44,004 bases of DNA, from the NCBI RefSeq assembly GCF_003334765.1, contig NZ_QOWT01000033.1; one strand, 5' to 3'. The notes beneath the pieces were generated by a model. The model saw nothing but the letters and a program-made list of their open reading frames with translations. It was not told the origin of the DNA and did no database searches. Position 1 is the first letter of the stretch. Each line of letters opens with the position of its first letter. Below are positions 3,367 to 9,446 of this stretch, one piece after another. A program made the position numbers and the translations under genes. This DNA comes from Escherichia coli. GTDB lineage: Bacteria; Pseudomonadota; Gammaproteobacteria; Enterobacterales; Enterobacteriaceae.

Positions 3367-4761
3367 TTGAGCCGTTTCGTTCCTCGCATTATCCCGTTTT
3401 ATTTACTCTTGCTTGTAGCAGGCGGTACAGCTAACGCACAATCTACCTTCGAGCAAAAAGCGGCAAATCCCTTTGATAATAACAATGATGGTCTGCCGGA
3501 TTTAGGCATGGCTCCCGAAAATCATGATGGGGAAAAACACTTTGCTGAAATTGTGAAAGATTTCGGCGAAACCAGTATGAATGATAACGGGCTGGATACT
3601 GGCGAGCAGGCAAAAGCTTTCGCATTGGGAAAAGTCCGCGACGCGCTTAGTCAACAGGTTAATCAGCACGTAGAGTCCTGGCTATCACCGTGGGGAAATG
3701 CCAGTGTTGACGTCAAAGTGGATAACGAAGGACATTTCACCGGCAGTCGTGGAAGCTGGTTTGTGCCGTTACAAGATAATGATCGTTATCTCACCTGGAG
3801 CCAGCTTGGTCTTACTCAGCAGGATAATGGGTTGGTGAGCAATGTGGGCGTTGGGCAACGCTGGGCGCGCGGCAACTGGCTGGTGGGTTATAACACTTTT
3901 TATGACAACTTGCTGGACGAAAATCTTCAGCGAGCGGGCTTTGGTGCCGAAGCGTGGGGCGAATATTTGCGATTATCGGCAAACTTTTATCAGCCGTTTG
4001 CTGCATGGCATGAACAGACAGCCACGCAGGAACAACGGATGGCGCGCGGGTACGACCTGACAGCTCGGATGCGCATGCCGTTCTATCAACACCTCAATAC
4101 CAGTGTCAGCCTAGAACAGTATTTTGGTGATCGTGTTGATTTGTTTAACTCTGGTACGGGTTATCACAATCCCGTCGCGTTGAGTCTGGGATTAAATTAC
4201 ACCCCTGTGCCATTAGTCACTGTGACGGCCCAGCATAAACAGGGTGAAAGTGGCGAAAATCAAAATAACCTCGGGCTGAATCTTAATTACCGCTTTGGTG
4301 TACCGCTCAAAAAACAACTTTCTGCGGGCGAGGTTGCCGAAAGTCAGTCGTTACGTGGTAGTCGCTATGACAATCCGCAGCGAAATAATCTACCGACTCT
4401 TGAGTACCGACAGCGAAAAACGTTAACGGTGTTTCTGGCGACACCGCCGTGGGATCTAAAACCTGGCGAAACAGTGCCGCTGAAATTACAAATCCGCAGT
4501 CGTTACGGTATTCGGCAACTGATTTGGCAGGGCGATACGCAGATATTAAGTTTGACGCCGGGCGCACAAGCCAACAGCGCGGAGGGCTGGACGCTGATCA
4601 TGCCTGACTGGCAGAACGGGGAAGGGGCAAGCAATCACTGGCGATTGTCTGTGGTGGTGGAAGATAACCAGGGGCAGCGTGTCTCCTCCAATGAGATCAC
4701 GCTAACGCTTGTCGAACCGTTCGATGCATTGTCAAACGACGAACTGCGCTGGGAACCGTAA
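3367..4761 (+). CDS. ychO: putative invasin/intimin-like outer-membrane protein YchO
   Basis: 464-aa ORF from a TTG; N-terminus looks like a signal peptide (RIIPFYLLLLVAGGTANA|Q). Exact start uncertain, no in-frame ATG nearby. Confidence 0.8.
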   Translation: MSRFVPRIIPFYLLLLVAGGTANAQSTFEQKAANPFDNNNDGLPDLGMAPENHDGEKHFAEIVKDFGETSMNDNGLDTGEQAKAFALGKVRDALSQQVNQHVESWLSPWGNASVDVKVDNEGHFTGSRGSWFVPLQDNDRYLTWSQLGLTQQDNGLVSNVGVGQRWARGNWLVGYNTFYDNLLDENLQRAGFGAEAWGEYLRLSANFYQPFAAWHEQTATQEQRMARGYDLTARMRMPFYQHLNTSVSLEQYFGDRVDLFNSGTGYHNPVALSLGLNYTPVPLVTVTAQHKQGESGENQNNLGLNLNYRFGVPLKKQLSAGEVAESQSLRGSRYDNPQRNNLPTLEYRQRKTLTVFLATPPWDLKPGETVPLKLQIRSRYGIRQLIWQGDTQILSLTPGAQANSAEGWTLIMPDWQNGEGASNHWRLSVVVEDNQGQRVSSNEITLTLVEPFDALSNDELRWEP

Positions 4762-5412
4762 TCAGAAAATGCGCTCCTGATGCACCCATACCGCTGCTTC
4801 CACGCGAGACTTGAGCTTCATTTTCTTCAGCATGTGCTTGACGTGCACTTTTACTGTGCTTTCGGTGATATCCAGGCGGCGGGCAATCATCTTGTTCGGC
4901 AAACCCTGGGCAATCAGCTTGAGAATATCGCGCTCGCGTGGGGTTAACTGGTTAACATCGCGCTCAGTAGTGGCACGGTTAGCGCGCAAGCTGGCGGCCA
5001 GAACAGGCGTTAATGCTTCGCTTAATACCATTTCGCCAGCAGCTGCCTGATGCAATGCTTTCAGCAGATCTTCCGGTTCCATATCTTTTAACAGATAGCC
5101 ATCCGCGCCGCGTTTCAGTGCGGTGACCACATCTTCTTCATGGTTAGAGACGCTGAATACCACAATGCGCCCTGAGAGGGACTTTTCGCGCAGTTTATCC
5201 AGCGTTTCCAGACCGTTCATGCCGGGCATATTGAGATCTAACAGGATCAGATCGGGATCAAGAGACTCCGCCAGTTCAATACCCTGTTCGCCATTACTCG
5301 CTTCGCCAACCACGGTGATATCTGGTGCCATACTGATAAGCTGTTTTACGCCAGTTCGCAGCATCGGGTGATCGTCAATCAGCAGGATAGTAGCCGGTTC
5401 CTGATTACTCAT
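4762..5412 (-). CDS. narL: nitrate/nitrite response regulator NarL
   Basis: ORF 4762..5526; recognised NarL begins at internal Met ([21 protein letters not shown]...), 216 aa; receiver domain plus LuxR-type HTH. Confidence 0.95.
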
Positions 5413-7201
5413 GGGTATCTCCTTGGACGTCTGTGAAAGTTTTTTCGGGAATAAAGGTGACCACCACTTCGGTGCCACCTGATTCACGACGGCGGACGCG
5501 GCAATCGCCTCGTAAACTTTGCGCACGATCGCGCATTATTATCATGCCGTAGTGATTGCTGCGGATGGCATTTTCAGGCACGCCGCAGCCGTTATCCTGG
5601 ACGGTCAGTTTGACCTGATTATCGTTTTGCGCCACCGTCACCACGACTTCACTCGCTTGCGAATGTTTGAGGGCGTTACTTAATGCCTCACGGGCAATTT
5701 GCAACAAGTGGATTGCCTGATGCGAAGGCACCAGGCGAGGCGGCAATTGATAATCCAGCTTCACCGGGAAGCCAAATTTGGCGCTGTACTCTTCGCAACT
5801 CGCCTCCAGCGCCGGACGTAATCCAGGCTCGGTGAGCTGCAAGCGGAATGTGGTGAGCAATTCACGCAACTGCGCCCAGGATGCATTCAGTTCGTTACGG
5901 ATCTGACTTAACAGTTCGCGGCTGCTTTCTGGCAGCGCATCGCCCTGCATCTGTAAACAACTCACCTGCATCTTCATGCAAGAGAGAGATTGGGCAATAG
6001 AATCATGCAGTTCGCGCGCAATGGTGGCACGCTCTTCCATCACGATCAACTGTTGCTGACGTTCCTGATGGCGATCCAGCGCCAGCGTGGCGGTGAGTTG
6101 TTCAACCAGGGTATCCACCAGTTGTTGTTGATCATGGCTAAGATGACGCCCCTGCGGCAGGGTCGCCAGCAAAATACCGTACTGCGTATGAGAGTCAGCC
6201 AGCCGCCACTTCAGGGTCGTGCCGCGATCACCAACGGGTAATACGCCGCGCGGGCAGAGCTGGCAGCCTTTATCATCACAAGTCATATCTGGCTGGCAGG
6301 TAAACTCCTGATGATTCTCTTCATCATCAGTGTCATACACCCGCAATTCGATATCACGTAGCAGGGTTAAATTCTGTAAGCCGTTGAGTACAGGTGACAG
6401 GCGTTCACACAGCGGGGCGCGGGAATGCAAACGGCGGTTAGCCTGCCATAAAAAAGAGAGGATCTGATTTTTATGCTCCAGCCCGGCGGTTTTCTCCTGA
6501 ACCCGCTGCTCAAGTACGGCATAACTTTCGGCCAGTTCTGCAGACATATTGTTCAACGCAGTTCCAAGCATCGCCATTTCGTTGCGCCCGCTGATGTTTG
6601 CGCGTTGGGTAAAATCGCGATGACTGACGGCACTCGCCATTGCCAGCAGTTGCCGCCACGGTTGTAGCAGTCGCGCCCGCAACCAGATAATAGTGAACAC
6701 CAGTAAAAGTGCCATAAATACCGCCATTACCCGATGGACCAGTACCACTGTCTCGATGCGCATTTCCGTGGTGCGGTCAAAACCAGATACCAGTTGATCA
6801 AGCCCGGCAACAAACTGGCTGACATCCGCTGACACCGTTTCTCGGTTTTGTGCACGCATCAGCGCAGGGATCAGTTCATTACGCCAGTAATCTTGTAAAC
6901 CCTGTAATTGCGCCAGTTGTCCGTCTCGTTCTGCTGCTCGAGTCAACTCGGCGCTAAATGCCGTTTGTTCCATCTCTTTAATTAAGGGCTTGTCTTTCTC
7001 GCTTAATGGCACTGCCGCCAACAGACGGTAACTTTGCATGCGCAGCGATCCCGCTTTGTTGATCGCATGGGCGCTGCCCTGAACGCCTTGCACCAGCCAG
7101 CCAGAAACCGCCATCCCTGCCAGTCCAATAGCAGTAGAAAGCAACACAATAAGCGCAACCTGATTAACCAGGGTGAGCGGAGAGAGACAACGTTTAAGCA
7201 T
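5405..7201 (-). CDS. narX: nitrate/nitrite sensor histidine kinase NarX
   Basis: 598-aa ORF ([21 protein letters not shown]...); stop codon overlaps the narL start by 8 nt. Confidence 0.95.
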
Positions 7202-7297
7202 GTAAACCTCTTCCTTCAGGCTTTAAATGAGCAATAACCTTAATGAATGTGACGATACATTCTGGAATGGCAGTATTCTCGGCTATTGGCTGAAGTA

Positions 7298-7324
7298 TAC
7301 CCATACCCGGAAAGAGTTACTCCT
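7298..7324 (+). promoter_or_regulatory. candidate NarL heptamers (TACCCAT, TACTCCT) upstream of narK
   Basis: Heptamers matching the NarL consensus TACYYMT seen in the narX-narK divergent region, roughly 200 bp upstream of the inferred narK start site. Confidence 0.5.
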
Positions 7325-7466
7325 TATTTGCCGTGTGGTTAGTCGCTTTACATCGGTAAGGGTAGGGATTTTACAGCACCGTGAAAAATCTCATAATTTT
7401 TATGAAGTCACTGTACTCACTATGGGTAATGATAAATATCAATGATAGATAAAGTTATCTTATCGT

Positions 7467-7480
7467 TTGATTTACATCAA
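7467..7480 (+). promoter_or_regulatory. FNR box TTGATttacATCAA (narK promoter)
   Basis: Perfect match to FNR consensus TTGAT-N4-ATCAA, about 60 bp upstream of the narK ATG. Confidence 0.75.
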
Positions 7481-7539
7481 ATTGCCTTTAGCTACAGACA
7501 CTAAGGTGGCAGACATCGAAACGAGTATCAGAGGTGTCT

Positions 7540-8931
7540 ATGAGTCACTCATCCGCCCCCGAAAGGGCTACTGGAGCTGTCATTACAGATTGGCGACCGG
7601 AAGATCCTGCGTTCTGGCAACAACGCGGTCAACGTATTGCCAGCCGCAACCTGTGGATTTCCGTTCCCTGTCTGCTGCTGGCGTTTTGCGTATGGATGTT
7701 GTTCAGCGCTGTTGCGGTGAACCTACCGAAAGTCGGCTTTAATTTTACGACCGATCAGCTATTTATGTTGACTGCGCTGCCTTCGGTTTCTGGCGCGTTA
7801 TTACGTGTTCCATACTCCTTTATGGTTCCTATCTTCGGTGGTCGTCGCTGGACGGCGTTCAGCACCGGTATTCTGATTATTCCTTGCGTCTGGCTGGGTT
7901 TTGCCGTGCAGGATACCTCCACGCCTTATAGCGTCTTCATCATCATCTCTCTGCTATGCGGCTTTGCTGGCGCGAACTTCGCATCCAGTATGGCAAACAT
8001 CAGCTTCTTCTTTCCGAAACAGAAGCAGGGTGGCGCGCTGGGTCTGAATGGTGGTCTGGGAAACATGGGCGTCAGCGTCATGCAGTTGGTTGCTCCGCTG
8101 GTGGTATCACTGTCGATTTTCGCAGTATTTGGTAGCCAGGGCGTCAAACAGCCGGATGGGACTGAGCTGTATCTGGCGAATGCGTCCTGGATATGGGTGC
8201 CGTTCCTTGCCATCTTCACCATTGCGGCGTGGTTTGGCATGAACGATCTTGCTACCTCGAAAGCCTCCATCAAGGAGCAGTTGCCGGTACTCAAACGGGG
8301 TCATCTGTGGATTATGAGCCTGCTGTATCTGGCAACCTTCGGCTCCTTCATCGGCTTCTCCGCGGGCTTTGCAATGCTGTCAAAAACGCAGTTCCCGGAT
8401 GTTCAGATTCTGCAATACGCTTTCTTCGGGCCGTTTATTGGTGCGCTGGCGCGTTCTGCAGGTGGTGCATTATCTGACCGTCTGGGCGGAACTCGTGTCA
8501 CGCTGGTGAACTTTATTCTGATGGCGATTTTCAGCGGCCTGCTGTTCCTGACCTTACCGACTGACGGGCAGGGCGGAAGCTTCATGGCGTTCTTCGCGGT
8601 CTTCCTGGCGCTGTTCCTGACAGCTGGGCTGGGTAGTGGTTCCACTTTCCAGATGATTTCAGTGATCTTCCGTAAACTGACAATGGATCGCGTGAAAGCA
8701 GAAGGGGGTTCTGACGAACGTGCGATGCGTGAAGCGGCAACCGACACGGCGGCGGCGCTGGGTTTCATCTCTGCGATTGGCGCGATTGGTGGCTTCTTTA
8801 TCCCGAAAGCGTTTGGTAGCTCGCTGGCATTAACGGGTTCGCCAGTCGGCGCAATGAAGGTATTTTTGATTTTCTATATCGCCTGCGTAGTGATTACCTG
8901 GGCGGTATATGGTCGGCATTCTAAAAAATAA
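7540..8931 (+). CDS. narK: nitrate/nitrite transporter NarK (MFS)
   Basis: ORF 7534..8931; recognised NarK starts MSHSSAPERATGAV... at the ATG at 7540; 463 aa. Confidence 0.95.
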   Translation: MSHSSAPERATGAVITDWRPEDPAFWQQRGQRIASRNLWISVPCLLLAFCVWMLFSAVAVNLPKVGFNFTTDQLFMLTALPSVSGALLRVPYSFMVPIFGGRRWTAFSTGILIIPCVWLGFAVQDTSTPYSVFIIISLLCGFAGANFASSMANISFFFPKQKQGGALGLNGGLGNMGVSVMQLVAPLVVSLSIFAVFGSQGVKQPDGTELYLANASWIWVPFLAIFTIAAWFGMNDLATSKASIKEQLPVLKRGHLWIMSLLYLATFGSFIGFSAGFAMLSKTQFPDVQILQYAFFGPFIGALARSAGGALSDRLGGTRVTLVNFILMAIFSGLLFLTLPTDGQGGSFMAFFAVFLALFLTAGLGSGSTFQMISVIFRKLTMDRVKAEGGSDERAMREAATDTAAALGFISAIGAIGGFFIPKAFGSSLALTGSPVGAMKVFLIFYIACVVITWAVYGRHSKK

Positions 8932-9076
8932 ACCGTTACTCGTCATACTTCGGGTTACATGTGCTGCGGCTGCGTTCATTCACCCCAGTCACTTACTTTA
9001 GTAAGCTCCTGGGATTCATTCACTTGCCGCCTTCCTGTAAACCGAATTATATAGAGTAAAATATTTGATTATCCTT

Positions 9077-9103
9077 TGCGCGGCATGATGTCGCGCTTTT
9101 TTT
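9077..9103 (+). terminator. narK rho-independent terminator (GC hairpin plus T run)
   Basis: GCGCG...CGCGC inverted repeat followed by about seven T residues, roughly 150 bp after the narK stop. Confidence 0.6.
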
Positions 9104-9178
9104 ATGCGTCATTTAGTTACAACATACTAATGTTATATGGTTTATTTCGCCGGATTTCATTAAGAGCCATTAATATGT

Positions 9179-9208
9179 TACCCATGGGGAATACTCCTTA
9201 ATACCCAT
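9179..9208 (+). promoter_or_regulatory. NarL heptamer cluster (TACCCAT, TACTCCT, TACCCAT) upstream of narG
   Basis: Three consensus NarL heptamers within 30 bp, about 200 bp upstream of the inferred narG start site, matching the known far-upstream NarL site architecture. Confidence 0.75.
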
Positions 9209-9331
9209 CTGCATAAAAATCTTAATAGTTTAAATAACTACAGGTATAAAACGTCTTAATTTACAGTCTGTTATGTGGTGGCTGTTAATTATCCTAAAGG
9301 GGTATCTTAGGAATTTACTTTATTTTTCATC

Positions 9332-9345
9332 CCCATCACTCTTGA
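9332..9345 (+). promoter_or_regulatory. FNR box TTGATcgttATCAA (narG promoter)
   Basis: Perfect FNR consensus about 100 bp upstream of the narG ATG. Confidence 0.8.
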
Positions 9346-9446
9346 TCGTTATCAATTCCCACGCTGTTTCAGAGCGTTACCTTGCCCTTAAACATTAGCA
9401 ATGTCGATTTATCAGAGGGCCGACAGGCTCCCACAGGAGAAAACCG

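Follow-up and report, generated by a model that had tools for sequence, protein, structure and literature searches.

The narGHJI Control Region of a K-12-like Escherichia coli Strain: an Unaltered FNR, NarL, and IHF Promoter with Sites Held at Fixed Distances among Enterobacteria

The narK-narG Locus

The DNA analyzed in this study (the window, 44,004 nucleotides) is a segment of the E. coli chromosome that extends from chaA to ompW. Positions 3583-13583 are identical to bases 1274000-1284000 of K-12 MG1655 (NC_000913.3), with 0 mismatches in 10,001 bases, and in this interval a window position is the K-12 coordinate minus 1270417. The control region considered here is directly 5′ of narG (ATG at 9447) and 3′ of narK (stop at 8931). 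The annotation of the identical K-12 DNA places the following genes around it.

Within 3583-13583, minus strand: narL and narX
7540-8931: narK, with its stop at 8931
8920-9103: narS, a putative sRNA in the RefSeq annotation
9447-13190, plus strand: narG, nitrate reductase A alpha subunit, an open reading frame of 1247 amino acids; the identical DNA is narG b1224 in NC_000913.3

The strain differs from MG1655, with about 99.9% identity over most of the aligned sequence and about 99.6% identity between the tyrT-tyrV region and ychE, and these alignments identify the source as a K-12-like strain, though not MG1655. Unlike MG1655, it is without the IS5 copy (IS5U) between ychE and oppA, at about window position 28430. 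The tyrT-tyrV/rttR tandem-repeat region (window 16287-16565) is shorter than that of MG1655.

The first-pass annotation had described the segment 5′ of narG as the textbook narG promoter, intact in this strain, and the identity of the sequence with K-12 bears this out. With a probability of about 0.97, window 9167-9459 is the E. coli narGHJI promoter, with the same sequence as that used in the classical K-12 work and acting by the established FNR/NarL-P/IHF mechanism. The narG control region is entirely known; it is ordinary and already explained. Little is at stake. The control region is unaltered in this strain, which should therefore express nitrate reductase A anaerobically and in response to nitrate just as K-12 does.

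Numbering and Sites of the Control Region

The primers narGup223 and narGDown have been used to amplify a narG fragment designated -223 to +70 (PMC9314961, supplement). The genomic part of narGup223 begins at 9167 (-223) and that of narGDown finishes at 9459 (+70), so that the transcription start falls at 9390. Sites were sought with consensus scans in which mismatches were allowed, and their positions are given below together with their centers in the published numbering.

9179-9185, plus strand: NarL heptamer TACCCAT, center -208, exact TACYYMT match
9192-9198, plus strand: NarL heptamer TACTCCT, center -195, exact TACYYMT match
9202-9208, plus strand: NarL heptamer TACCCAT, center -185, exact TACYYMT match
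9261-9273, plus strand: candidate IHF core TTACAGTCTGTTA, center about -123, degenerate in E. coli
9289-9304, no strand assigned: NarL "-89 region", comprising TTATCCT (plus strand, center -98, 2 mismatches), AA, and AGGGGTA, a 7-2-7-like inverted pair
9298-9304, minus strand: NarL heptamer TACCCCT, center -89, exact match; the plus strand reads AGGGGTA
9342-9355, no strand assigned: FNR box TTGATcgttATCAA, a perfect TTGAT-N4-ATCAA palindrome, TTGATCGTTATCAA; center 9348.5, which is -41.5, the class II activator position
9378-9383 (-12 to -7), plus strand: TACCTT, probable -10 hexamer, 29 bp 3′ of the FNR-box center and conserved
9390, plus strand: transcription start (+1) in the published numbering, on which both primers agree
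9390-9446, plus strand: narG 5′ UTR of 57 nucleotides, with a Shine-Dalgarno sequence GGAG at 9436-9439, read from the sequence

The three NarL heptamers that had been assigned to 9179-9208 are present at exactly those coordinates as exact matches on the plus strand. All of the sites named in the first-pass annotation exist, but its list was incomplete: it omitted the -89 region at 9289-9304, and it postulated an IHF site without locating it. The spacing relative to the known narG promoter had been named beforehand as the comparison that could refute this reading, and -208/-195/-185 and -41.5 agree with the published architecture. In that architecture, NarL-P protects a low-affinity -195 region and a high-affinity -89 region from DNase I, full induction needs both NarL regions in addition to bound FNR and IHF, and narG is described as lacking true 7-2-7 sites (PMC4549865). 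The promoter is also described as FNR- and NarL-dependent with an IHF site (PMC9314961).

The perfect FNR box that had been reported does exist, but its coordinates were shifted by exactly 10 bases: the interval given, 9332-9345, reads CCCATCACTCTTGA, and the box is at 9342-9355. The narGHJI operon is tabulated with FNR at -41.5 and an FNR ChIP peak (PMC3688515). From its base composition the window should contain about 0.05 exact FNR boxes; it contains three, in the narK promoter, in the narG promoter, and in the interior of purU. The last of these is a perfect TTGAT-N4-ATCAA sequence at 17078-17091 (K-12 locus L002, 17728-17741), inside the purU coding sequence, and is probably a chance match. 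In the narK promoter, which follows the same logic as narG, the FNR box at 7467-7480 is perfect and the one at 7429-7442 has a single mismatch; NarL heptamers match exactly at 7298 (plus), 7318 (plus), and 7422 (minus). Just 5′ of the real narG box, a degenerate FNR-like sequence, TTCATccccATCAC (2 mismatches), occupies 9326-9339 with its center at -57.5 and overlaps a one-mismatch NarL-like heptamer, TCCCCAT, at -57.

The -10 hexamer is assigned less directly. TACCTT at 9378-9383 is probably the narG -10 element, as judged from its 29-bp distance to the FNR-box center and from its conservation (89% column identity in 108 species, among the matches listed); the optimal class II spacing between the FNR center and the -10 element is described in PMC9314961. 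A generic σ70 scan of 8850-9550 did not call the narG promoter, a miss that is uninformative because the promoter is activator-dependent, with a poor -10 and no -35.

IHF binding to the narG region is reported to be required (PMC4549865, PMC3688515), and because the DNA is identical to that of K-12 the published site is present here. The best candidate in E. coli, TTACAGTCTGTTA, has 3 mismatches to WATCAANNNNTTR and escapes a scan that permits up to 2 mismatches. At the orthologous position, 43 of 108 species have a core with no more than one mismatch centered at -123, and 6 more have one at -124 (among the matches listed); the aligned species read, for example, AAATCAATGTGATAG. The conserved bases of the core are CA (9264-65) and GTTA (9270-73). 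The orthologous positions and the literature together point to 9261-9273 as the candidate core in E. coli.

Conservation of the Control Region

Of 5426 complete E. coli genomes, 5415 contain the 343-bp segment 9104-9446 with at least 80% coverage, at 90-100% identity. In an alignment of strains (from which the S. arizonae row, taken from the wrong flank of the gene, was disregarded), five divergent E. coli strains with 95-100% identity have the -208, -195, -185, -98/-89, FNR, and -10 sites all unchanged, and the substitutions among them fall in the spacers, for example at 9273-9285. A natural disrupted narG promoter is seen in E. coli FDAARGOS_943 (locus L127, 3200-4120), where IS1A is inserted at about 9302, inside the -89 NarL site, so that the NarL and IHF sites upstream of it are cut off from the FNR box and the core promoter.

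Relatives were retrieved with a degenerate pattern based on narG codons 3-16, which yielded at least 120 enterobacterial species. A perfect FNR box is located 100-145 bp 5′ of the narG ATG in 113 of 120 species, and in all but one of those 113 the distance is 100-121 bp (among the matches listed). For the footprint, 108 sequences were aligned and anchored on the perfect box; the value of 1.00 for the FNR half-sites is therefore by construction, and 113/120 is the independent figure. The mean identity to the E. coli base over these 108 species, among the matches listed, is 0.89 for the -10 hexamer, 0.85 for the -195 heptamer, 0.78 for the -89 heptamer, and 0.70 for the -185 heptamer, as compared with 0.34 for the other spacer columns. 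Heptamers with no more than one mismatch pile up at four positions only in the same 108 species (among the matches listed): -195 on the plus strand (89/108), -185 on the plus strand (57/108), -89 on the minus strand (49/108), and -98 on the plus strand (48/108). The first four bases of the -185 heptamer, TACC, are nearly invariant across species, again among the matches listed.

Distances are kept as well as sequences. Among the 113 species whose FNR box is perfect, the block TACYCCTTAATAC begins exactly 150 bp 5′ of the start of that box in 89 and 151-152 bp 5′ of it in 15 more (among the matches listed). Sites at fixed distances with diverged spacers fit the accepted arrangement, in which two NarL regions are joined by an IHF bend; the loop itself is unproved by the footprint. 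The addition to what is known of narG is modest, namely that evolution preserves the -195, -185, and -89 heptamers and the IHF core, as well as how far each lies from the FNR box.

Most of the 5′ UTR is also conserved. Positions 9397-9446 are nearly invariant, with an identity of 0.85 as compared with 0.34 for the promoter spacers (108 species, among the matches listed). The predicted fold of the 5′ UTR is no more stable than that of shuffled sequence (z = 0.15), which rules out a structured leader as the reason for this conservation. A scan of 8700-9600 against Rfam (E ≤ 1) matched the narG leader to none of the known RNA families and returned two weak, below-threshold matches only: RyhB, at the narK terminator, and V_AS5, at the repeat in the narK 3′ UTR that is described below.

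Mechanism and Alternatives

Under anaerobic conditions, an FNR dimer on the box at -41.5 would carry out class II activation of RNA polymerase at the weak -10 hexamer TACCTT. In the presence of nitrate, NarX would phosphorylate NarL, and NarL-P would occupy both NarL regions, with high affinity at -89 (9289-9304) and with lower affinity at -195, where the region comprises -208, -195, and -185 (9179-9208). IHF bound between the two NarL regions, at about -123, would bend the DNA and place the far-upstream NarL-P complex near the promoter-proximal complex. Full induction would need FNR, NarL-P, and IHF together. Protein binding and the requirement for both NarL regions and IHF are established in the literature on the identical K-12 sequence and by that identity should hold here, whereas the geometry of the loop at narG is one that we infer.

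Because the region is identical to that of K-12 MG1655, chance is not an issue for its motifs. The contrary reading would treat the heptamers and the palindrome as fortuitous consensus matches in AT-rich intergenic DNA that have no regulatory role. TACYYMT is indeed short, the window is not enriched in it (31 heptamers versus 22.5 ± 4.8 expected, which is not significant), and a perfect FNR-like palindrome is also found inside the purU coding sequence. However, when the window was simulated 3000 times with a first-order Markov model, any three heptamers fell within 30 bp in just 10 simulations, and three on the same strand did so in 1. The sequence is, moreover, that of an experimentally dissected promoter, the positions agree with the published -195, -89, and -41.5, and the sites are kept in place across about 100 species (among the matches listed) while the spacers have diverged. 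Identity with K-12 and positional conservation refute the chance reading, to which we attach next to no probability.

Two other alternatives concern the upstream half of the promoter. In one, there is no discrete IHF-stabilized loop; NarL-P oligomerizes cooperatively from -195 to -89, and IHF is an auxiliary, purely architectural factor. Spreading of NarL along the DNA is mentioned as an alternative (PMC4549865), and weak one-mismatch heptamers at -153 and -147, as well as one on the minus strand at -148 in 13 species (among the matches listed), are consistent with it. On the other hand, the interval from -180 to -100 is poorly conserved except for the IHF core, IHF is reported as required (PMC4549865, PMC3688515), and 89 species keep precisely 150 bp between the -195 block and the FNR box (among the matches listed). 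Such a fixed distance is more in keeping with a geometric or helical-phase constraint than with a continuous protein filament, and we consider spreading unlikely. The other alternative restricts the functional far-upstream site to -195 and -185, with -208 as a recent Escherichia-specific addition of little or no role. The mean column identity at -208 is 0.30 (108 species, among the matches listed), against the 0.85 and 0.70 of -195 and -185; there is no enrichment of heptamers at -208 in these 108 species (among the matches listed), and E. albertii is without the -208 heptamer. Against this, the E. coli heptamer is an exact consensus match, it is invariant in the five divergent E. coli strains that were aligned, the standard full-length narG fragments begin at -223 and so contain it, and conservation is uninformative on function within E. 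coli. That -208 is dispensable is conceivable but doubtful. From its distribution, the -208 heptamer appears to be specific to the Escherichia lineage, and its contribution is less certain than those of -195 and -185.

Comparison with Other Promoters

The control region of the K-12 narGHJI promoter has the same DNA and the same site positions as the window, with no difference between them. An FNR box at -41.5 and NarL heptamers are shared by the class II FNR promoters that are co-regulated by NarL, namely nirB, nrfA, narK, dmsA, and frdA. At nir, NarL acts from a single 7-2-7 site at -69.5, where it displaces IHF and Fis (anti-repression). At narG, unlike nir, IHF acts as a co-activator, and NarL requires two regions, apart from each other, that extend up to -208. 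At frdA and dmsA, NarL represses. The σ54 enhancer promoters, such as nifH and glnHp2, resemble narG in having a remote activator site at a fixed distance and phase with an IHF bend between. They differ in that narG has a σ70 promoter with a class II activator, and NarL is not an ATPase of the σ54-enhancer type.

TerD and the narK 3′ Region

Upstream of the promoter sites, the highest conservation is that of the block TTAGTTACAACATACTAA at 9113-9130, with an identity of 0.84 (in the species among the matches listed). It occurs once in the window and, by its sequence, is part of the replication terminus site TerD and not a nar regulatory site.

9078-9103: narK terminator (terminator prediction), its T-run just before TerD
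9110-9132, minus strand: TerD, a 23-mer that reads CATTAGTATGTTGTAACTAAATG on the minus strand from 9132 to 9110, unannotated in the RefSeq record

The 23-mer at 9110-9132 fits the Ter consensus: position 6 is G, and positions 8-18 carry the full core ATGTTGTAACT. The Ter core is defined as positions 6 and 8-18 (PMC8347550), and the core of this site matches, base for base, that of terB as written in the primers of PMC10025158. In K-12 coordinates the site is NC_000913.3 1279527-1279549, within the published TerD interval 1279446..1279676 (PMC10287960). Its position 1-6 end, the non-permissive side (PMC8707476), points to higher coordinates, so that forks heading to lower coordinates meet the non-permissive face, an orientation that agrees with the block to counter-clockwise forks attributed to TerD (PMC5638614). 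The TerD 17-mer, sought in the literature as an exact string, gave no match. Other candidates considered for TTAGTTACAACATACTAA, namely a NarL 7-2-7 site, a ModE, ArcA, OmpR, or LysR-/GntR-type operator, and a divergent promoter, are superseded by its identity as a Ter site, and an 8-codon open reading frame at the same place (ATG at 9104) was rejected, its ATG not being conserved.

TerD begins 7 bp after the T-run of the narK terminator and is 47 bp 5′ of the -208 heptamer; its non-permissive face is turned to narG. Of the 112 species with enough upstream sequence, 85 have a Ter core at this place in the same orientation, and in most of these 85 the distance to the -195 NarL block is about 75 ± 2 bp (among the matches listed). 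It is absent in Buttiauxella, Hafnia, Cedecea, Pluralibacter, Pseudocitrobacter, and Atlantibacter, among others. The two elements could be functionally coupled, with bound Tus serving as an architectural or insulating element of narG or, conversely, with the NarL/IHF complex or narG transcription modulating fork arrest. We regard such coupling as highly improbable. A functional link has no support in the present data, and a passive explanation is more likely, in which a Ter site is well placed at a spot shielded from transcription and insertions and deletions seldom arise. Transcription interferes with Tus-Ter, and this spot, past the narK terminator and 5′ of a promoter that fires away from it, would be transcription-free.

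The narK 3′ UTR contains an ERIC/IRU-like repeat at 8935-9060, inside the RefSeq narS annotation (8920-9103), which is probably ERIC, as judged from the ERIC consensus and primers; the weak, below-threshold match to V_AS5 falls on this repeat. Of 5417 complete E. coli genomes, 2454 contain the full 515-bp narK-narG spacer and the others match from query base 129, which indicates that the repeat is polymorphic. Copies of the repeat are also found on plasmids.
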